The translations under genes were made by a program, and so were the position numbers. Shown piece after piece: positions 2,318 to 58,681 of a stretch of 64,000 nucleotides of DNA. This DNA is from an uncultured Acidobacteriaceae bacterium. GTDB lineage: Bacteria > Acidobacteriota > Terriglobia > Terriglobales > Acidobacteriaceae. The notes under the pieces are model-generated. The model worked only from the letters and a program-made list of their open reading frames with translations. It searched no databases and was not told where the DNA came from. The first letter of the stretch is position 1; the number at the start of each line of letters is the position of its first letter. Location: NCBI GenBank assembly GCA_963766975.1, contig CAVYCF010000012.1, positions 32,859 to 96,858 of the forward strand, given 5' to 3'.

Positions 2318-3627
2318 AGTACTACGTCTATATTGATAATTTCCGCGGCTTCAGCGACACATGTGTCGAAATACTCGACGTGAATTTTCTAGTCGGTGAA
2401 AACAGCACTGGCAAGACTTCCTTCCTGGGGCTTCTGAAGCTTCTGTCCGGACCGAATCTGTTTTTTGGTCAACGATTCGACAATGAGCACATTGGGTTCG
2501 GTGGCTTCTCGGATATCGTGAGCGCGCACTCAAGCGACCGAAGTTATTTTCGCATTGGCTTCGCATGGGAAGAAGCCCCCGAGAAGAAGGAAAAGCCTCG
2601 TGTCACAGGCTGTCTCCTGACCTATACCGAAGAACGGGGACTGCCCTTCCTTTCGCAATGTACGTTTAGTCGGAACGGGAGCGTCATATCATTGCGACTT
2701 GGCAAGACGTGCATTACTCAATCGATAAATACAATGCAGCAACCGCAGACGAAATGATCTCCACTCTTCGCAAGGTGTGGGTGCGTGAGCATTCCGGTAA
2801 GGAAAAAAAATTTACAAAACTTGCGGTGCCGCCGTCGATGAAACGTGGGATGCCTGTATTGGTGGCATTGTCCTTCATCATGGATCGGAGCAAACAGCAG
2901 GTAAAGGGAAACAAGGTGGAATTGTTCCCTCCGGACATAGATTTTTTGCCCGATCTAATTTGGCTAGCCCCGATCCGGGCAAAAACAAAACGCATTATGA
3001 TCGCTGACACAGGAGACATTCTCTCCCGAAGGGGCACATACACCCTATTTGATTCGGAGAATACTGCGCACACCATCTCAGAAATCTGCAATCAAGCTGC
3101 GTCATGCGTTGGAGAAAATTGGAAAAGCAAGCGGACTTTTTCAAGAAGTCAGAATCAAGCCATATGGCCGGACTGCCAACGCGCCATTTGAGTTGGACAT
3201 TGTTCTCGATGGTAAAGCCCTCAACGTTAGCAATGGGGGGTATGGAGTTTCTCAGGCATTGCCGGTCATTGTCGAAGTACTCTTGAGAGCCTCTGGTACA
3301 TGGCTTGCAATACAGCAACCTGAGGTTCACCTTCATCCGAGAGCACAGGCTGCCCTAGGTGATCTCTTCTTCGAGATGGCAACTACAGATGAGAAGATTT
3401 TCTTGGTGGAAACGCACAGCGATTTCACCATTGATCGATTCAGGTTGAACTATAAGGGCAACAAATCAGCCAAAGCTTCCGGCCAGATCCTCTTCTTTGA
3501 GCGTAAAGACAAGCACAATGTCATTACCCCACTTGAAATCGGAAAGAACGGGGAACTGCCAACAGATCAACCAGAGAGCTATAGACAGTTCTTCATCAAA
3601 GAGCAATTGAGACTGTTAGACGTCTGA
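2314..3627 (+). CDS. ABC-type/AAA_15-21 ATPase (COG4938/DUF3696-like), frameshifted at ~2709 and ~2995-3000
   Basis: N-terminal YIDNFRGF and Walker A GENSTGKT. C-terminal GYGVSQALP, Walker B IQQPEVHLHP and H-loop VETHSD. The three ORF pieces join into ~438 aa. The region is visibly AT-richer than its flanks. Confidence 0.85.
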
Positions 3628-3630
3628 ACC

Positions 3631-4110
3631 ATGTGCGCAATCGTTGATTCATGCTGCCTCGCAATGGTTTTCGACCGCACGAACAAGGAGCACCCGCGCT
3701 TTGAACCTCTGTTCAGTTGGATCAGTGGCAGTGGTTGCCTAATTTACGGTGGCACGGGCTACAGAGCCGAACTTGAAAAACTTCCGCGCTATTTGGCACT
3801 CATTGTCGAGTTGAGAAAATCTCGCCATGCAGTCTCCGTCTCAGATTCAGAAGTAGACAAAATTGCAGCGGAATTGAAAAAGGAATATCCCGATCCACGG
3901 TTCAACGACCCGCACATCGTCGCTTTGGCACTAGCCTCAGGATGCCAAGTGGTATGTACAAACGACGCGACTGCTATCAATTACCTGAAACGTCTTGTCA
4001 TTTTTAACGGACGCGGGCTCAAGAGGCCAAGCATCTATCGGGGACACAAGAGCCACCACAAGCTATGCTGCGACAAAAAGATTGTCGGAGCGTGTAGAGA
4101 TCGCGGTTAG
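3631..4110 (+). CDS. PIN-fold nuclease-like protein
   Basis: N-terminal AIVDSCC strand-Asp, a central Glu (RAELE) and NDPHIVALALASGCQVVCTND, the usual PIN acidic-tetrad pattern. It starts 3 nt after the ATPase stop. Confidence 0.75.
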   Translation: MCAIVDSCCLAMVFDRTNKEHPRFEPLFSWISGSGCLIYGGTGYRAELEKLPRYLALIVELRKSRHAVSVSDSEVDKIAAELKKEYPDPRFNDPHIVALALASGCQVVCTNDATAINYLKRLVIFNGRGLKRPSIYRGHKSHHKLCCDKKIVGACRDRG

Positions 4111-4811: not shown

Positions 4812-5115
4812 CCTGTCAAGCCCCGAAACCACCTATCTCGCTCACCCGCCTGACGATAGAGTTGGCATGATAGTTATGCTCCGCCAGCTACAATAGAAGT
4901 AGAGAGAAAAGCAGGAATAGAAGCAAATAGAAGTAGAGAGAAAAGCAGGAATAGAAGCAGTGAGAAAAGCAAGGTCCGCCGCGCGCGGGCCCTGTCTGTT
5001 TAGGGTATCCAATTGAAAACAAGGGCGTTCCTAAATAACTTCTGTGAAATCAATCACGAGAAATAAACCCTTCCAAATCAATCATCTGGAAAATCCTATA
5101 GGGGGAGGGGGGTAC
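4812..5115 (+). repeat. Dispersed modular non-coding element, copy 1
   Basis: By hand, 4812-4899 aligns without gaps to the reverse complement of 55283-55370 (62/88), and 5050-5115 aligns to the reverse complement of 55112-55177 (47/66). Confidence 0.75.
4892..4959 (+). repeat. 34-bp exact tandem duplication, purine-rich
   Basis: aatagaagtagagagaaaagcaggaatagaagca occurs twice back to back. Confidence 0.9.
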
Positions 5116-10902: not shown

Positions 10903-12936
10903 TCAGCCCGTGGATTTTTTGTTGCGGGGGCGGGTGAGGAAGCGGAGCGGGGTGCCGACGAAGCCGAAGGCCTCGCGCAGACGGTTGGCGAGGTAGCGCT
11001 CAAAGGCGAAGTGGAGGGGGACGTCGCGGTCGGTGAAGAGGACGAAGGTGGGCGGAGCGACGGCGGCCTGGGTGATGTAGTAGATCTTGATGCGGCGGTT
11101 GAGAGGGACGGGGGCGGACTGGAAGTCGGTGCGGGCGAGGAAGCGGTTCATCTGGCCGGTGGTGACGCGCTTGCGGCGCTCGCGGGCGACGAGAGAGATG
11201 GCGCGGTAGAGGGCGTCGAGGCCAGTGCCGGCGGCGGCGGATAGAAAGACGACGGGCGCGTAGTCGAGGAACTTGAGGCGGGTGCGGAGCTGGGACTCGA
11301 AGATCTTTTGCGAGGCTTTGGGGGTGTTGGACTTGGTGCCCTCCCACTCGTGCGCGTCCCGGCGGTCGTGCATGAGGGGGGTGACGTGATTGTGTGGCGC
11401 GATTTTAGAAGCAGGTCCCTCGACTGCGCCGCGCGCTGACGCTCGCGGCTTCGCTCGAGATGACAAGTTTGTGGTCAGCAGGTCCCACTTGTTGACGACG
11501 ATGATGACGGAGCGGCCGGACTCATGCGCGTAGCCGCCGATGGTGGCGTCGAGCGCGGTGACGCCGGCGGAGGCGTCGAGGACGAGGAGAGCGATGTCGG
11601 CGGATTCGAGGTGGCGGCGGGCCATGACGACGGAGAGCTTCTCGGCCATCAGGCGGGTCTTGCCTTTGCGGCGGATGCCGGCGGTGTCGATGAGTCGCAG
11701 GGCCTGGCCGTTGCGGATGACGAGCTCGTCGATTGCGTCGCGAGTGGTGCCGGCGATGGGCGAGACGATAGCGCGGTCGGAGCCGGTGAGGGCGTTAAGT
11801 AGCGTGGATTTGCCGACGTTGGGGCGGCCGATGATGGCGATGGGAGTTTCTGCGGGGATGTGTTCGGCGTGGCGGGGGTGGTGGGTTGCTGGCTCGTTGG
11901 AGGCGACTTCGCTGACGGCACCGGGGAGCAGTTCTGATCCTGCGGCGGGGCTGAAGTCGGGACCGGTCTCGTCCTCTTCGATCTCGTCGGCTTCAGTGAG
12001 CATGGCTTCCGGTGCGCTGACGGTCTCGGTGGGTTCGGGGAGGACGGCGAAGGCGGCGTCGAGGAGGTCGCCGATGCCGATGGCGTGCTCGGCGGAGATG
12101 GGGATGATGTTTTTGAAGCCGAGGCGGCGGAAGTCTTCGGCGTTGGAGGCGAGGGCGGCGGTGTCGATCTTGTTGACGGCGAGGAAGACGGGCTTGCCGG
12201 AGCGGAGGAGCAGGCGCGCAAGTTCGAGGTCGGGGGCGGCGAGCTCGGTGCGGCCGTCGACCACCATGATGATGGCGTCGGCTTCGGCGAGCGCGGTGCG
12301 GGCCTGACGGAAGATCTCGGCGGGGATGAGCTCGGGGTCGTCGGGGAGGACGCCGCCGGTGTCGACGAGGCGGGCGGTGCGGGCGAGCCATTCGAGATCG
12401 GCGTAGATGCGGTCGCGGGTGATGCCGGGCTCGTCGCCGACGATGGAGCGGCGGGAGCCGGTGAGGCGGTTGAAGAGGGTGGACTTGCCGACGTTGGGGC
12501 GGCCGACGATGGCGATCAGGGGAAGGCCGGTTTCGGATTCGAGGTGGGCGGCGGCTGTGCGGGCGACTCGGGCGTTGAGCGACATTTGCGCGGCGAGGGA
12601 TTCGGCGCGGGACCAGGCAGCGGCCTCGGCGGGGAGCTCGAGGTTGGGATCGTAGGGATCGTGCGCAGAGATGCGGGATTTGCCTCGCGGAGCGTTTGGC
12701 GCGATGGGCTTACTGCGTTCGCGCTCAGGGGATTGCGTGGGGATGTGGCGCTTGGCCTCGGCCTTGCGCCGGTCGGAGGCGATTTTTTTGCGGCCCTTGG
12801 GCGAGGCGTTGGAGACGCTGGCAACGAAGGCGCCGGTGGTGGGCTTGCGGCGCGGGGCGGAGCCGGATTTCTTGGGGCGCGTGGTGGCCTGGCGATGCTT
12901 CTTGCCGAGACGTTTCTTGCTGGGGCGCGGTGGCAT
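10903..12936 (-). CDS. der: Ribosome biogenesis GTPase Der/EngA, with a basic N-terminal extension and an insert in GD2
   Basis: Two GRPNVGKST G1 motifs, DTGG/DTAG, NKID/NKWD and a C-terminal KH-like domain (PPTFVLF). Confidence 0.97.
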   Translation of the reverse strand: MPPRPSKKRLGKKHRQATTRPKKSGSAPRRKPTTGAFVASVSNASPKGRKKIASDRRKAEAKRHIPTQSPERERSKPIAPNAPRGKSRISAHDPYDPNLELPAEAAAWSRAESLAAQMSLNARVARTAAAHLESETGLPLIAIVGRPNVGKSTLFNRLTGSRRSIVGDEPGITRDRIYADLEWLARTARLVDTGGVLPDDPELIPAEIFRQARTALAEADAIIMVVDGRTELAAPDLELARLLLRSGKPVFLAVNKIDTAALASNAEDFRRLGFKNIIPISAEHAIGIGDLLDAAFAVLPEPTETVSAPEAMLTEADEIEEDETGPDFSPAAGSELLPGAVSEVASNEPATHHPRHAEHIPAETPIAIIGRPNVGKSTLLNALTGSDRAIVSPIAGTTRDAIDELVIRNGQALRLIDTAGIRRKGKTRLMAEKLSVVMARRHLESADIALLVLDASAGVTALDATIGGYAHESGRSVIIVVNKWDLLTTNLSSRAKPRASARGAVEGPASKIAPHNHVTPLMHDRRDAHEWEGTKSNTPKASQKIFESQLRTRLKFLDYAPVVFLSAAAGTGLDALYRAISLVARERRKRVTTGQMNRFLARTDFQSAPVPLNRRIKIYYITQAAVAPPTFVLFTDRDVPLHFAFERYLANRLREAFGFVGTPLRFLTRPRNKKSTG
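11335..11381. repeat. REP-like hairpin (GGTGCCC-ended type) in frame within der
   Basis: cccactcgtgcgcg pairs with cgtgcatgagggg, preceded by ggtgccc. The ppc-internal hairpin carries the same end as gggcacc. Confidence 0.55.
11409..11466. repeat. REP-like element in frame within der
   Basis: Left 19 nt identical and right 17/18 nt identical to the intergenic copy at 57705-57759, with the same total length. Confidence 0.85.
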
Positions 12937-14710: not shown

Positions 14711-14747
14711 GGCTGAATCCTCAGCCGGTGTTGCGGAGGCTTCAGCC
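14711..14747. terminator. Hairpin (REP-like or terminator) between convergent genes, overlapping the ppc stop
   Basis: ggctgaatcctc pairs with gaggcttcagcc (11/12). Confidence 0.5.
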
Positions 14748-17717
14748 CGTATTTCTGAGGCCGGCGGAGATGCCGTTGATGGTGGCGGTGATGGCGCGGT
14801 CGAGTTCGGCGGAGGGCGAGGCGCCTGAGGCTTGTGCCGCGCGCTTGCGGCGGAGGAGCTCGACCTGGATGAGGGACATGGGGTCGACGTAGGGGTTGCG
14901 CAGGCGGATGGAGCGCTCAAGCACCTTGTTGGTCGCGAGCAGCGTGGACTGGCCGAGGATGGCGAGCACCATGCGCGTAGTGAGTTCGAACTCGGCGAGC
15001 AGTGTGTTGAAGACGCGCTCGCGCAGGCCGGGGTCGGTGACGAGTGAGGCGTAGAGGCGTGCGATGGAGAAGTCGGCCTTGGCGAGGCCGACCTCGACGT
15101 TGCGGATGATGTCAATGAAGAGCGGGAAGCCGCGCGCCATGGATTGGAGCAGGGCGAGGTTGGCGGCTTCGCGAGTGGCCTGATCCGGATTGCTGTCCGC
15201 GCCGTTGGTCTGGATGAAGTGCTGGAGCGCGTGGCCGACGCCGAAGTAGGCAGGTACGACGTGGCGGGACTGCATCCAGCCGAAGACCCAGGGGATGGCG
15301 CGGAGGTCTTCCATGCTGCGCTTGCGCTGGGCGCTGGCGTCGGTGCGTTTGGCGGGGCGGGAACCGATGCGGGCGTGCTCGAGCTCGGCGACGGGCGTGG
15401 CCTGCTCGAAGTAGGTGAAGGTGTCGGGGTCTTCGGCGATGTGTTTGCGGTAGAAGGCGTAGCTGGTGGCGGAGAGCTGGTCGAGCGCGGACTCCCACTC
15501 GGGGAGGATCTCGCCGGTGAGGTGAGGTGTGTACCGAGCTTCGTCTCCCACCTTAGCTCCCTGCGGTCGCGAAGGTGGGGCACCCGATTTGTGCTGCAGC
15601 GTCGCGTCGGGGCGGGCGAGGGCGTCGAGCGAGGCGGCGATCATGAGTTCGAGATTGCGCTCGGCGAGGATCACGTCGGAGTACTTCCAGTTGAGGACCT
15701 CGCCCTGCTCGGTGATGCGCAGCTCGCCAGAGAAGCTCTCGATGGGCTGGGCGAAGATGGCGCGATGCGTAGGACCGCCGCCGCGGCCTACGGTCCCTCC
15801 GCGGCCGTGGAAGAGGCGCAGGGTGACGCCGCATTCGCGTGCGACCTGGTGCAGCGCGCGGTGGGCCTTCCATATCTCCCAGGTGGAGGTGATCATGCCG
15901 CCGTCTTTGTTGGAGTCGGAGTAGCCGAGCATCACCTCCTGCTCGTGGTTCCAGGATGCGAGCAGCGGCTTGTAGGCGGGCGACGACCAGAGCTGGCGCA
16001 TGATGGCAGGCGCGTTCTGCAGGTCTTCGATGGATTCGAAGAGCGGGACGGGCTGCAGGCCGGGGTCGGAAGATTTGCCTTGCGCGTCTCCTTCCACGCG
16101 CACGCCGCCGAGGCGCGCGAGTCGGACGACGTTGAGGATGTCTTCTGCGGAGGTTGCGCCGGAGATGACATAGCGTGGGAGCGATTCAGCGGGGAGGTCG
16201 CGCTTGAGTTCGGCGATGGCGCGGAAGGTGTCGAGGACTTCGGTGCTTGATGGTGAGAGCGCGGGGCCGAGTTCGTTCGCGGCAGGCAGCTTTGCGATCT
16301 CGGCGATGGCGGCGGAGTGGACGCGGGCGTGCTGGCGGATGTCGAGGGTTTGAAGATGGAGGCCGTAGGTGCGGACCTCGAGCAGGAAGGGATCGATGTA
16401 GAGGCGGGCGAGTCGCTGGCCGCGATTATGGATGAGGCTCGCGCGCAGGACGGTGAGGTCGGCGATCAGTTCGGCAGCGGTTGCATAGGGCGCGAGCGCG
16501 GAGCCGGCGGGGAGCGGGACGGAGATGTGCGGCGGGCCGCCGAGGCGCATCATGATGCAGCTGACGAGCAGGCGTACGGACTCAAAGGGGAAGCGGGATT
16601 CGAGGATGGTTTGACCAGCCGCCCGGAGTTGCGTGAGGTAGGTGTCGACGAGCTCGGTGAGCTCGAGGGTGACGGCGACGATGCGCGTGGAGCTGGCGAG
16701 CTGATCGAAGATCACTTGTAGGCGTGAGCGGTAGTGGGTGAAGAGGAGCTCGCGGGCGAGGGTGAGCGCCTGGCGAGTGACCTCAGGCGTGACGAACGGA
16801 TTGCCGTCGCGGTCGCCGCCGATCCAGGAGCCGAAGGCGACGAGTTGAGGGAGCTCGGTGAGGGATGGTTCGGCGATGGAGAACTCGTTGGCGATCGCCT
16901 GCGCGACCTCGGAGTAGAGGGCGGGCAGAGTGTTGAAGATGGAGGCCTCGTAGTAGTCGAGCGCCATGCGGACCTCGTCGCGCACGGTGGGGCGGGCCTG
17001 GCGGACCTCGTCGGTCTGCCAGAGGGCGGTGATTTCGGCGAGAAGGTCGCGCTCGAGGGATTCGAGATTTTCTTCGGGGACGGGGATGCGGTCGAGCTGT
17101 TCGAGGAGGTCGGAGATGCGGCGGCGCTTGAACATCACGGAGCGGCGGGCGACTTCGGTGGGGTGGGCGGTAAAGACGGGCGTGATGCAGATCTTCCCGA
17201 GCAGCGCGCGGGCGTCGTCGGCGCTGGCGCCGGCGAGATGGATCTGGCGGAGAGCTCCACGGATCGACCCGCGCTGGGGGACGGCGTCCGGGTGGAGTTG
17301 GCTGGCGAGGCGGCGGCGCTTGCGGTGGTTGGTCTCGGCGAGGTTGATGAGCTCGAAGTAGAAGGCGAAGGCGCGGGCGAGCTGGTAGGCGCTGGTCTCA
17401 GAGAGCGCGCCGACGCAGGCGATGGCGTGCTGGAGAGGATCGGACGTGGCGCTGGGTGAGGTAGCGCGGGGCTTTGCGGCGCGCGGCGCGGCGGCGGATT
17501 CAGAGACTTCGGCCTCGCGGCGGGTGATGGCGGTCTGGCGCAGCTCTTCGACGGACTGGAAGGTGGCGTCGCCGGCCTGCTCGCGCAGGACCTCGCCGAG
17601 GAGTGCGCCGAGCGAGCGCACGTCGCGGCGGAGCGGAGCTTCCTTGAGCTCGCCGGCGGTGGCTTCGAGTTCAGCCAGGCGCTGCGGCCAGTTGGCGGGC
17701 GACCAGAGTGAGGGCAT
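14742..17717 (-). CDS. ppc: Phosphoenolpyruvate carboxylase
   Basis: VFTAHPTE, GSWIGGDRDGNP, VMLGYSDSNKDGG, FHGRGGTVGRGGGP and LRAIPWVFGW; ends GLRNTG. Start taken at MPSLW. Confidence 0.97.
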   Translation of the reverse strand: MPSLWSPANWPQRLAELEATAGELKEAPLRRDVRSLGALLGEVLREQAGDATFQSVEELRQTAITRREAEVSESAAAPRAAKPRATSPSATSDPLQHAIACVGALSETSAYQLARAFAFYFELINLAETNHRKRRRLASQLHPDAVPQRGSIRGALRQIHLAGASADDARALLGKICITPVFTAHPTEVARRSVMFKRRRISDLLEQLDRIPVPEENLESLERDLLAEITALWQTDEVRQARPTVRDEVRMALDYYEASIFNTLPALYSEVAQAIANEFSIAEPSLTELPQLVAFGSWIGGDRDGNPFVTPEVTRQALTLARELLFTHYRSRLQVIFDQLASSTRIVAVTLELTELVDTYLTQLRAAGQTILESRFPFESVRLLVSCIMMRLGGPPHISVPLPAGSALAPYATAAELIADLTVLRASLIHNRGQRLARLYIDPFLLEVRTYGLHLQTLDIRQHARVHSAAIAEIAKLPAANELGPALSPSSTEVLDTFRAIAELKRDLPAESLPRYVISGATSAEDILNVVRLARLGGVRVEGDAQGKSSDPGLQPVPLFESIEDLQNAPAIMRQLWSSPAYKPLLASWNHEQEVMLGYSDSNKDGGMITSTWEIWKAHRALHQVARECGVTLRLFHGRGGTVGRGGGPTHRAIFAQPIESFSGELRITEQGEVLNWKYSDVILAERNLELMIAASLDALARPDATLQHKSGAPPSRPQGAKVGDEARYTPHLTGEILPEWESALDQLSATSYAFYRKHIAEDPDTFTYFEQATPVAELEHARIGSRPAKRTDASAQRKRSMEDLRAIPWVFGWMQSRHVVPAYFGVGHALQHFIQTNGADSNPDQATREAANLALLQSMARGFPLFIDIIRNVEVGLAKADFSIARLYASLVTDPGLRERVFNTLLAEFELTTRMVLAILGQSTLLATNKVLERSIRLRNPYVDPMSLIQVELLRRKRAAQASGASPSAELDRAITATINGISAGLRNTG
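15547..15585. repeat. REP-like hairpin in frame within ppc
   Basis: Perfect 8-bp stem cccacctt/aaggtggg followed by gcaccc; it encodes part of GAPPSRPQGAKVG. Confidence 0.65.
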
Positions 17718-17816
17718 TAAGCCCATTATGCAACGGGGTGGGATGAGGAACTGATGAGGAAAGGCGGTCCGCGAAAGGTAAACTCCGCGCAATGCTCCGC
17801 GCGGAGTTCCGCAGCG

Positions 17817-57644: not shown

Positions 57645-57759
57645 GCAGATTCCTTCGCATTGAAGAACAGGATCGAACGCTGCGGAATGACAATAAAAGC
57701 AAACGCAGGTCCCTCGACTGCGCGATTCGCTGACACGAATCGCTTCGCTCGGGATGACA
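57645..57759. repeat. Tandem intergenic REP-like elements (57645-57692 and 57705-57759)
   Basis: gcagattccttcgc...gctgcggaatgaca and gcaggtccctcgactgcgc...gcttcgctcgggatgaca share GCAG...ATGACA ends. Confidence 0.8.
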
Positions 57760-57820
57760 GATTCTTTGGAGTGCGAGGGGATAACGGCACGCGTGAAGGC
57801 GTGCCGTTCCCTTTTGCGGC

Positions 57821-58681
57821 TCAGTCGCGGTGGGGGCGCTTGCCGTTTTTGGAGGCGGCGGCGGTGAGGGCGCGTGCGGCAGGTGCGGCTCCGTTTGGGG
57901 CTGCGGAGCGGTTGCCGAGGAGCCATGAGACCTCGCGGGCAGACTTGCAGAGTTCGCGGGCGAAGATGGGGACTCGGTCTGTGGTGACGCGGACGACGGG
58001 GCCGGAGACGCTGATAGCGGCGGCGACCTGTCCGTTGGCGTCGTGGATGGCTGCGCCCATGCAGCGGACGCCGGGGACGGCCTCCTCATCGTCGAGGGCG
58101 TAGCCGCGGCGGCGGATGTTGGCGATCTGCTTTTTGAGGCGGGTGAGCGAGCCGATGGTGCGCGGGGTGATGTGCTCGAACTCGATGTTGGAGAAGAGGT
58201 CCTCGCGGGCGGCGGGATCGTCGATGGCGGCGACCATGGCCTTGCCGAGCGAGGTGGAGTAGAAGGGCAGGTGCGAGCCGATGCGGGTGACCTGGCGGAA
58301 GGTGTGGTCGGTCTCGATGACGTCGATGTAGAGGACGTCGGTGCCGTCGAAGACGGCGAGGTTGACGGTCTCGCCGGTGAGCTTGCGGAGGTTCTCCATG
58401 ACGGGGCGGGCGAGTTTGGAGAGGGTGGCCTGGAAGGCGACGCCGCTGCCGAGGCGGGCGAGCTTAGGGCCGACCATGTAGTTGCGCAGGGCGTCGCGGA
58501 AGAGATAGCCCTCGGACTCGAGATGGCAGAGGAAGCGGTGGGCGGTGCTCTTGTTGATGCCGGCGCCGACGGCGATCTCCTTGAGCTGGAGACCGCCGGG
58601 CGCGGTGTCGAGGAGTTCGAGGACGGTCAGGACTTTGCCGATGACGCCGACGGGAGCGGATTTGATCCGTTTGGTGGGCAT
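57821..58681 (-). CDS. IclR-family transcriptional regulator
   Basis: KVLTVLELL...GINKSTAHRFL..L...GYL, GETVNLAV, STSLGKA and GYALDDEE..PGVRC.GA.I. Confidence 0.95.
   Translation of the reverse strand: MPTKRIKSAPVGVIGKVLTVLELLDTAPGGLQLKEIAVGAGINKSTAHRFLCHLESEGYLFRDALRNYMVGPKLARLGSGVAFQATLSKLARPVMENLRKLTGETVNLAVFDGTDVLYIDVIETDHTFRQVTRIGSHLPFYSTSLGKAMVAAIDDPAAREDLFSNIEFEHITPRTIGSLTRLKKQIANIRRRGYALDDEEAVPGVRCMGAAIHDANGQVAAAISVSGPVVRVTTDRVPIFARELCKSAREVSWLLGNRSAAPNGAAPAARALTAAASKNGKRPHRD

Follow-up and report, generated by a model that had tools for sequence, protein, structure and literature searches.

Rickettsia palindromic elements (RPE) are non-autonomous palindromes that lie between genes and also, in frame, within unrelated housekeeping genes; they do not disrupt the host ORFs, one peptide frame is preferred and the protein fold accommodates the inserts (PMC10969869, PMC3733652). 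Elements of the RPE-1 type are about 100-150 bp long and belong to the AT-rich reduced genomes of obligate intracellular Alphaproteobacteria (PMC10969869, PMC3733652). The GTAG and CGTC REPs (Di Nocera et al. 2013, PMC3733652) are small palindromes, mostly extragenic and biased toward 3' and convergent settings, with some in-frame copies in housekeeping genes. In-frame intragenic REPs have been described in O. terrae and Thauera, and the intragenic examples also include RPE-4 and RPE-6 of R. conorii (PMC3733652). Acidobacteria appear in that survey only for Y1 transposases flanked by terminal inverted repeats (TIR). MITEs (ERIC, Correia, Nezha), a class that also produces in-frame fusions, are 70-300 bp long, with TIR that match those of an IS and with target-site duplications (PMC10969869, PMC2229807).

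A loop of the essential GTPase Der, encoded in the 64,000-nucleotide stretch of Acidobacteriaceae DNA analyzed here (the window), very probably contains two translated palindromic repeat insertions. The elements resemble RPE in being non-autonomous palindromes that occur intergenically and in frame in unrelated housekeeping genes, with intact host ORFs, a preferred peptide frame and fold-compatible inserts. In contrast to RPE, they are 30-60 bp long and GC-rich, their hosts are free-living in soil and peat, and several families stack in one loop and turn over between close relatives.

The Der loop insert

The features of the der locus are:
10903-12936, minus strand: der (engA) ORF, 677 aa (ORF listing and translation)
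11482-11493, minus strand: G4 motif NKWD of GD2, aa 482-485, directly upstream of the insert
11407-11473 (core 11411-11465), minus strand: element 2, a family-2 hairpin of the form TGTCATCTCGAGCGAAG-[inner stem-loop]-CGCAGTCGAGGGACCTGC (nhmmer)
11387-11406, minus strand: spacer between the elements, KIAPHNH region (codon-by-codon comparison)
11337-11386, minus strand: element 1, a diverged family-1 palindrome (local alignments and predicted hairpin)
11278-11310, minus strand: start of helix alpha-4 of GD2, KIFESQLRTRL, aa 543-553, with the return to conserved Der sequence

From its N terminus, the encoded protein comprises a K/R-rich extension, GD1, an acidic linker, GD2 and, last, a KH-like domain. 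Pfam assigns to it two MMR_HSR1 domains (two stretches, E=2.9e-56) and a C-terminal KH_dom-like domain (PF14714, residues 590-669, E=8e-25). EngA structures match at E=1.7e-109, the KH-like part aligning with residues 303-435 of 2hjg. G1 (GRPNVGKST) is found at aa 145 and 370, G3 (DTGG/DTAG) at aa 192 and 417, and G4 (NKID/NKWD) at aa 255 and 482, the NKWD of GD2 being invariant among 48 Der orthologs. With two tandem GTPase domains and a KH-like domain, this is a Der/EngA ribosome-biogenesis GTPase.

Residues 491-534 of Der, specified by window positions 11335-11466, read LSSRAKPRASARGAVEGPASKIAPHNHVTPLMHDRRDAHEWEGT and include the peptides GAVEGPASK and IAPHNHVTPLMHDR. Between NKWD and LKFLDYAP, the window Der has 76 aa; the close orthologs with the shortest loops (P0012, P0041, P0048, P0049, P0074) have 33 aa, so that the loop contains 43 extra residues, close to the ~45 that an earlier note on this DNA had placed after the GD2 NKWD. 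EngA of B. subtilis (2hjg) has almost no residues in this stretch: Der residues 352-403 (query numbering) fall between 2hjg chain residues 301 and 303, and alignment resumes at query 403. AlphaFold renders residues 492-537 as coil with pLDDT <50; a confident strand (476-482) precedes them, and helix 543-553 (block pLDDT about 86) follows. On this model the insert is predicted to be a disordered loop between G4 and alpha-4, on the protein surface and outside the fold; the model is modest overall (mean pLDDT 64.8, pTM 0.40), and the loop is not placeable relative to the ribosome.

Repeats commonly cause chimeric contigs, and a repeat misjoined into der, like an inactivated der pseudogene, might pass for an insertion. 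We give such an origin practically no weight. Contigs from four independent runs (X1-X4: four peat metagenomes, four studies) cross both junctions without indels, which disposes of the misassembly that the earlier note had named as a refutation, and the same architecture recurs in orthologs of other assemblies. The frame is open, all G motifs are present, and codon usage scores 0.62 in frame (the other five frames are negative or ~0), with 0.70 and 0.71 on the insert's two sides. A search for insert transcripts returned, from metatranscriptome runs, 2-4 of 54 words, which represent only conserved flanks of other orthologs; the protein with its insert is presumably made.

Element 2 and its intergenic twin

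Two further features of the window are related to element 2:
57699-57768, minus strand: intergenic family-2 copy (nhmmer; repeat family D18)
57650-57697, minus strand: diverged relative, TGTCATTCCGCAGCG...GCGAAGGAATCTGC (read directly, outside profile scoring)

The former, flanked by convergent genes, has sense orientation and lies downstream of a minus-strand gene ending near 57822; its diverged relative is arranged head-to-tail with it. The left arm, GCAGGTCCCTCGACTGCGC, is identical over 19 nt at 11411 and 57705 (0/100 shuffles gave 2 matches), exactly as the earlier note had it; the right arms of 11411-11465 and 57705-57759 agree at 16/17 positions, a real match for which the note had counted 17/18. 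Both middles are 19 nt long and have CGCTGAC in common, and the inner stems differ, each being self-complementary, which bears out the equal-length middle and covarying stem ends proposed earlier. The note had quoted the plus strand; the structure is strand-specific and belongs to the minus strand, which is the gene-sense strand.

An nhmmer profile built from copies in other genomes (window and Der copies excluded) recovers element 2 with E=9.4e-13 and the intergenic copy with E=2.5e-16. The translation of element 2 reads (N)LSSRAKPRASARGAVEGPAS(K). Against ortholog L001, which is 90% identical, the window der has a net gain of 57 nt at element 2; the spacer is alignable in part with L001 (AAR ATC ... 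AAT), and comparison of the filled window site with L001 reveals no visible target-site duplication.

That the loop is instead lineage-specific low-complexity sequence generated in place, resembling the intergenic copy by chance or having given rise to it, is in our view refuted. High-GC genomes do produce many spurious palindromes, and the folding z-scores are weak, but the E value of element 2 (9e-13) was obtained with other genomes' copies, more than 170 identical-arm copies exist in other genomes, mostly intergenic, and there are orthologs that lack the segment.

Structure and genomic setting of family 2

The twin at 57705 is one of many further copies: family 2 occurs in at least 118 8-kb stretches, nearly all of them from MAGs of Acidobacteriaceae, Terriglobales or Terriglobia, and 185 copies, with 170 distinct inner segments, were collected. 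Copies are 33-74 nt long (mode 58), a range and mode that reflect the nested inner stem. All copies have GTC, the base before it being T in at least 90% of them and C in L005 and L006.

The inner stem is hypervariable and always self-complementary; a perfect inner stem of at least 6 bp is present in 51% of copies versus 1.6% of shuffles. Among 33 copies of the same length, 92% of cells are paired and 16 of the 19 pairs show compensatory changes (0/500 shuffles as high). The outer stem, U-CCC/GGG-A, holds an invariant tandem G.A/A.G mismatch (G21, A22, G63 and A64 do not vary in these 33 copies), and one of its G-C pairs covaries. Folding energies of single sequences are no better than those of shuffles (z about -0.9), so that structural support for the hairpin comes from covariation. 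The minimum-free-energy alternative for the outer stem (GTC/GAC plus a bulge) was ruled out, having no covariation and 9 broken cells; the tandem-G.A model was retained. Short family-2 forms contain GAGCGAAGCGAG, a GCGAAGC hairpin with 5'-GA/GA-3' mismatches on its flanks that C-G pairs close, a context that is unusually stable. Tandem sheared G.A of the d(GCGAAGC) type is a thermodynamic motif rather than a genetic element, and its relevance to family 2 is suggested by invariance and covariation. Rfam yielded nothing relevant in a gathering-threshold scan of the window or in permissive scans of both loci: the family-2 hairpin is an undescribed structured element.

The structured strand is usually the mRNA-sense strand, and in 55% of copies, versus 24% of shuffles, none of its three frames contains a stop codon. 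Most copies outside genes lie 3' of genes in sense orientation (flanking genes: unidirectional sense, 63; unidirectional antisense, 22; convergent, 27; divergent, 9). In an intrinsic terminator a U-tract comes directly after a GC-rich hairpin; the 3' flank consensus of family 2, CTGCTkTT, has only 2-4 T, and a consensus terminator scan does not call the 57699-57768 element. L089 carries a family-2 array of direct repeats with a period of ~180 bp. As to a phage vector, an idea that was set aside, the pattern occurs on one IMG/VR contig only.

Among pattern-ascertained copies, 7/160 (~4%) are intragenic and strictly in frame. (A lenient gene caller places 19/176 copies inside genes, which is probably an over-call. 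The in-frame criterion is a spanning open frame, an earlier version with 150-nt flanks having missed true Der cases.)

Element 1 and family 1

Family 1 consists of a GGGTGCCCCA head, a variable stem-loop and a GTGGG tail, with 30-60 nt (mostly 30-44) between head and tail. Element 1, translated as VTPLMHDRRDAHEWEGT, belongs to a subfamily with the consensus CCCCATTCATGCGCGACCGTCAGGnCGCGCATGrGTGGG. It has no close twin within the window. A general family-1 nhmmer profile proved too heterogeneous and was rejected, since it missed element 1 and even the PEPC copy described below (E=0.43); subfamily alignments with shuffle controls were used in its place. Element 1 aligns at 43/50 positions with the orthologous copy of L006, at 36/49 with L006:4446, a family-1 copy that is not orthologous, and at 34/40 with L005:11645, each score unmatched by 2000 shuffles. 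Element 1 is an old, diverged family-1 copy common to sister orthologs. The two adjacent hairpins of the earlier note are both repeat copies, of different families, and element 2 alone is fresh and consensus-like.

Turnover of the loop among Der orthologs

The Der loop varies from 33 to 112 aa among orthologs; element-derived peptides occupy it in 67/120, and 33/120 have short loops. P0012 (77% identity) has no insert, and P0002 (90% identity) has element 1 together with a different family-1 element at element 2's place. Alignment of the orthologs, which the earlier note had proposed as a check, thus finds close ones without the segments or with other elements at the same spot. No empty-site allele was found at >90% identity, so the insertion is deduced from comparison. 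Candidate 'skip' joints were rejected as empty alleles: they come from other taxa, with unknown intervening sequence.

GD1 and GD2 are 92-99% identical to those of the closest orthologs, and the element-1 region 58-72%; this points to relaxed constraint on a region that evolves faster than the folded domains. Element 2 occurs at the same position, near consensus, in distant Der clades, its arms being 91-94% identical between the window and L004 (domain nucleotide identity, 84%). A single neutral insertion followed by decay fails to explain this.

One way to account for it is a single ancient insertion into the der of an ancestral Acidobacteriaceae, with many later losses and with gene conversion or selection holding the element close to consensus; the other is recurrent insertion at a hot spot. 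The single event would explain why position, orientation and frame (LSSRA...EGPAS) agree in at least three Der clades, why P0005, which stands beside the window/P0002 pair in the tree, has an apparent decayed copy after the same LLTTN, and why L004 likewise has family 2, then family 1. We nevertheless regard it as doubtful, though a serious possibility: the architectures differ (an inner stem of ~20 nt in the window, none in L004), many lineages that have another element or no element at all stand between the carrier clades, element 2 is absent from the nearest ortholog, P0002, and an element at one MnmG loop is read in two frames across species.

Conservation also bears on whether the loop has been put to use. 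The peptide, or a hairpin in der mRNA, might aid Der function or regulation through ribosome contacts, translational pausing between GD2 and KH, or mRNA stability. A core of element 1, PLMxDRRxAHEWE, is kept in at least nine orthologs; the element-2 arms are at least as conserved between distant orthologs as the folded domains; family-2 structure is strand-specific, the structured strand being the mRNA-sense one; and some element persists in this loop in 67 of the 120 orthologs. What makes exaptation improbable is that loop content is not conserved (33-112 aa, interchangeable families, short loops in 33 orthologs), that the element-1 region outpaces the domains, that the segment is predicted to be disordered and that unrelated enzymes carry the same elements. 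The loop is more plausibly tolerated by selection than useful.

In-frame copies in other genes

One such copy lies in the window:
15547-15584, minus strand: family-1 element in the PEP carboxylase gene (14745-17816), in frame, translated GAPPSRPQGAKVG

It is identical at 37/38 positions to an element in the Der loop of L001, and one PEP carboxylase contains about nine elements. In-frame copies also occur in MnmG (3 species), PheT, RsmI and two FAD enzymes. Certain loops are hit recurrently by different elements: the G4-alpha4 loop of Der, one MnmG loop (in which different species read the element in two frames) and three loops of PEPC. In family 1, 16/16 in-frame copies read GGT GCC CCA (Gly-Ala-Pro...), even though in some subfamilies all three frames are open.

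The single frame of family 1, the stop-free strand of family 2 and the recurrently hit loops raise the idea that these elements are adapted to translation, targeted to particular loops, or both, beyond selective filtering. We offer this tentatively, as a reading that we do not favor.

Relation to described elements

The parallel with RPE drawn by the earlier note is supported: these are multi-copy families, overwhelmingly intergenic in other Terriglobia genomes, inserted in frame with the GTPase motifs intact, and the ORFs of Der, PEPC, MnmG, PheT and RsmI are all intact, with a preferred frame. The likeness is one of behavior; membership in an RPE family by sequence is unlikely because phylum and base composition differ.

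The note's term 'REP-like' suits architecture and genomic distribution. As in CGTC REPs, of which TGTC variants are reported and which likewise have no transposase link (PMC3733652), family 2 starts with (C/T)GTC and then AT, so that its terminal tetranucleotide is REP-like if TGTC is allowed; family 1 has the head GGGTGCCCCA. The copies of family 2 are many, mostly extragenic and enriched in 3' and convergent settings. REP palindromes measure 20-40 bp, family 1 30-60 nt and family 2 33-74 nt; family 2 is longer than REPs (modal 58 nt) and differs from them in its nested hypervariable second stem and invariant tandem G.A mismatch. It also forms no head-to-head dimers: the 57650-57768 pair is head-to-tail, the L089 array is direct, and tail-to-tail pairs were likewise not seen. 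The RAYT connection implied by the term did not emerge: in 1.04 Mb of sequence surrounding the elements, a motif scan found no RAYT or transposase link to either family. Its one Y1_Tnp-like fragment (L031) scored 22.3 bits, below the cutoff of 23, and the repeat array on its flanks is a different one. We treat the Terriglobia families as, at most, candidate members of canonical REP/RAYT.

The elements share with MITEs their shortness, lack of autonomy, inverted-repeat termini, RNA folding and capacity to lie within genes. In contrast to MITEs, they measure 30-74 nt, and neither a target-site duplication (window versus L001) nor a cognate IS was seen.

The earlier note knew of no description of such elements for the phylum, and no description in Acidobacteria was found in the literature searched. 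In-frame intragenic REPs are known outside Rickettsia, from other phyla (PMC3733652), so the phylum is new and the principle is not.

A model for the Der loop

In the explanation that we prefer, two non-autonomous Terriglobia palindromic elements would have inserted into the der loop between G4 and alpha-4 of GD2, where they would undergo transcription and translation along with the rest of Der. Element 1 would be the older insertion, common to sister lineages and drifting faster than the folded domains; element 2 is a consensus-like copy whose RNA or single-stranded-DNA form would be a long three-part hairpin. Some mobilizing mechanism is presumed. Intragenic copies would survive in essential genes only if in frame, stop-free and in a permissive surface loop. 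The outcome would be a disordered loop of ~43 extra residues, many of them Arg, Ala, Ser, Gly or Pro, with the GTPase fold intact.

Implications

Reduced intracellular genomes are not the only ones in which selfish palindromic DNA writes itself into essential proteins; the process is frequent in large-genome, free-living Acidobacteriaceae. At the practical level, such inserts make proteins longer, disrupt alignments and give rise to spurious 'hypothetical proteins' when MAGs are annotated. Because there have been many independent events, with turnover between orthologs that are 90% identical, these loops form a natural series on the origin of new protein sequence, which addresses how non-coding repeats yield protein and which loops tolerate repeats. 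If adaptation to translation or targeting to particular loops were to prove true, a structured selfish element would routinely supply an abundant soil phylum with new disordered protein segments, and essential genes would contain recurrent 'safe-harbour' sites for it.

The Extra Loop of Der

Features of the window (coordinates are window positions):
4892-4983: AG-rich tandem repeat of two exact 34-nt units (AATAGAAGTAGAGAGAAAAGCAGGAATAGAAGCA) and partial units; the surrounding intergenic DNA is AT-richer
10903-12936, minus strand: der (Der/EngA, 677 aa), assigned from ORF, motifs and Pfam
11337-11386, minus strand: element 1, in der
11407-11473, minus strand: element 2 (core 11411-11465), in der
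15547-15584, minus strand: family-1 palindrome GAPPSRPQGAKVG, in frame in the PEP carboxylase gene (14745-17816)
57650-57697: diverged family-2 relative, head-to-tail beside the intergenic copy
57699-57768, minus strand: intergenic family-2 copy, between convergent genes
57782-57811: separate GC-rich hairpin GGAACGGCACGC...GCGTGCCGTTCC, between the intergenic copy and the end of a minus-strand gene

Der comprises two GTPase domains, GD1 and GD2 (G1 at aa 145 and 370, G3 at aa 192 and 417, G4 as NKID at aa 255 and NKWD at aa 482), followed by a KH-like C-terminal domain. Scored with a model of codon usage that was trained on 137 long ORFs, the der frame reaches 0.62 and the other five frames ≤0.04. 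As the earlier note had claimed, palindromes lie in frame directly after the G4 motif of GD2: 11335-11466 encodes aa 491-534. NKWD and the conserved LKFLDYAP are 76 residues apart; the shortest close orthologs have 33 there, which makes ~43 residues extra. (In the alignment with B. subtilis EngA, 2hjg, ~50 residues of the window protein are squeezed between chain residues 301 and 303.) The AlphaFold2 model, built with 48 orthologs, is modest overall (mean pLDDT 64.8, pTM 0.40); locally the picture is clear, with strand 476-482 and helix 543-553 modelled confidently. Residues 492-537, between them, are coil at pLDDT <50, and the insert is therefore predicted to loop out, disordered, between G4 and helix alpha-4 of GD2.

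Misassembly, which the earlier note had named as a way to be wrong, is contradicted by contigs from four peat-metagenome runs (four studies), which span 11150-11769, 11164-11506, 11190-11508 and 11164-11506 with 5-7 substitutions and zero indels relative to the window. At 11458, in the right arm of element 2, all four independent runs have G, the consensus base, where the window has A; the difference is synonymous in the der frame (TCT to TCC).

Elsewhere in Acidobacteriaceae Der, a K/R-rich N-terminal extension is conserved, with KRLGKKHR invariant (window 12526-12936, aa 1-137), and the GD1-GD2 linker is long and acidic. Both regions also hold in-frame elements in orthologs L005 and L006.

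Element 2 and Its Family

The 19-nt arm GCAGGTCCCTCGACTGCGC occurs at exactly two window sites, 11411 and 57705, an outcome reached in 0/100 shuffles; the earlier note was right on the match of this arm and on the middles, which are 19 nt each in the Der and intergenic copies, have CGCTGAC in common, and differ in stems that are each self-complementary. The second (right) arm also matches, at 16/17 in place of the 17/18 noted.

The pattern GTCATCYCGAGCGAAG-N(6-36)-GTCGAGGGACCTGC, scanned with one genome per species, is found in at least 118 stretches, almost all of them Acidobacteriaceae, Terriglobales or Terriglobia MAGs. A relaxed pattern gathered 185 copies from these stretches and the Der loci, with the consensus: A-rich flank, yTGTCATCCCGAGCGAAG, variable segment, CGCAGTCGAGGGACCTGCTkTT. 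The variable segment is distinct in 170/185 copies and forms a perfect stem of ≥6 bp in 51% (1.6% of shuffles). With a profile made without window or Der-loop copies, E is 9.4e-13 for the Der copy and 2.5e-16 for the intergenic one. (Exact matches in bins labelled Binatus, Reyranella, Alphaproteobacteria and Gemmatimonadetes, stretches L057, L074, L085 and L086, could reflect mis-binning or wider spread. In L089, at 3079-4031, six copies with a ~180 bp period make up a tandem array of a longer element-containing unit.)

Structure was analyzed in the 58-nt length class (33 copies, aligned without gaps). In the model, an outer stem U-CCC/GGG-A is broken by a tandem G.A/A.G mismatch and followed by a G-C pair and a 13-bp inner stem. 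It pairs 92% of cells, with compensatory changes in 16/19 pairs, values reached by 0/500 shuffles (copies share descent, so that cell counts are non-independent events). The four G.A positions are invariant, while flanking pairs swap C-G to U-A and G-C to C-G. The alternative minimum-free-energy fold has zero covariation and is broken in 9 sequences. The structure is specific to one strand, since the complement of a tandem G.A is a tandem pyrimidine mismatch; the strand with the structure, GTCATCC..., is the mRNA-sense strand in der.

Genomic context of family-2 copies (pattern-ascertained)
Downstream of a gene, sense orientation: 63
Downstream of a gene, antisense orientation: 22
Between convergent genes: 27
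Between divergent genes: 9

This flanking-gene pattern, read with the codon-usage model, is that reported for REPs, the GTAG/CGTC-tagged palindromic repeats (PMC3733652). The intragenic-versus-intergenic count suggested in the earlier note was run as a pattern scan, in which 7/160 copies are strictly in frame inside genes (spanning open frame, ≥150 nt on each side, coding signal on both sides).

In-frame family-2 copies (protein names read from translation)
L014 1423-1468, L046 2037-2083, L090 5783-5828: one loop of MnmG/GidA in three species
L061 5065-5108: PheT, antisense
L119 4580-4623: RsmI
L106 7625-7683: HpnE-like FAD enzyme
L123 4262-4297: thioredoxin-reductase-like enzyme, antisense

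The MnmG/GidA copies are read in two frames (CHPERSEAKPN.VEGP and VIPSEVRRPPNEVEGP).

Element 1 and Turnover of the Loop

Family 1 runs from a GGGTGCCCCA head through a variable stem-loop to a GTGGG tail; 16/17 copies in unrelated Terriglobia stretches (copies away from stretch ends) are intergenic. Element 1 has drifted: it matches a copy whose site is not orthologous to its own (L006:4446) at 36/49, L005:11645 at 34/40 and the orthologous L006 copy at 43/50, and in each comparison 0/2000 shuffles score as high. Element 1 is therefore an older insertion, common to sister orthologs with PLMxDRRxAHEWE. Across its region, identity to those orthologs is 58-72%, as against 92-99% for GD1 and GD2, which indicates relaxed constraint.

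The ortholog alignment proposed earlier supports an insertion. Among the best 120 Der orthologs (62-90% identity across the aligned query, nearly all metagenomic; in the few cases where a source is named, it is an Acidobacteriaceae or Acidobacteriota MAG), NKWD-LKFLDYAP length ranges over 33-112 aa. Recognisable element-derived peptides are present in 67/120, and in 33/120 the loop from NKWD to alpha-4 is ≤25 aa. In ortholog DNA the peptides are seen to be the repeats themselves.

Contents of ortholog Der loops
L001 (nearest ortholog, 90% identity): element 1, plus a family-1 element displaced by a few codons from the window's element-2 site
L004: family 2 then family 1
L005: family 2 in another frame (VILSEA...) then family 1
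L006: four stacked elements

In an NJ tree of conserved Der columns, bearers of LSSRA-frame elements are spread over three or more separate clades. Loop turnover is therefore both recent and recurrent. Element 2 itself may have been inserted newly, or long ago and then held near consensus. The L001 family-1 element is 37/38 identical to the in-frame copy in window PEP carboxylase; the latter is missing from the L002 ortholog, whose PEP carboxylase has none, and several more are spread over three loops of the enzyme in L005 and L006.

All in-frame family-1 copies (16/16) use the frame GGT GCC CCA, and 55% of family-2 copies have a sense strand that is free of stop codons in every one of its three frames (24% of shuffles). 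These are biases that exceed a plain selection filter.

Relation to Known Palindromic Elements

The behaviour of the Der elements matches that of Rickettsia palindromic elements (PMC3733652, PMC10969869) and of the intragenic REPs of O. terrae, Thauera and R. conorii (catalogued by Di Nocera et al., PMC3733652). Like CGTC-tagged REPs, family 2 has a (C/T)GTC-AT head, but it is longer, has a nested variable stem and the invariant G.A pair, and lacks head-to-head dimers. As to the RAYT/IS200-like TnpA that the earlier note proposed to look for, no transposase association was found in 1.04 Mb around the elements, where the lone Y1_Tnp-like fragment adjoins a different repeat array. (This truncated IS200/RAYT-like ORF, L031 7250-8000, minus strand, is followed by a tandem array of another palindromic repeat, GGCGGACATTCTTGTCCGCC..., of ~62-nt period, and looks like a REPtron of another family.) No target-site duplication is visible either. 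The Der-loop elements can thus be said, by analogy, to work like Rickettsia palindromic elements and REPs, and are not called members of these groups.

No matching Rfam family was found, nor any description in the literature of palindromic elements in frame inside proteins of Acidobacteria. The principle is already known; this case adds a new instance.
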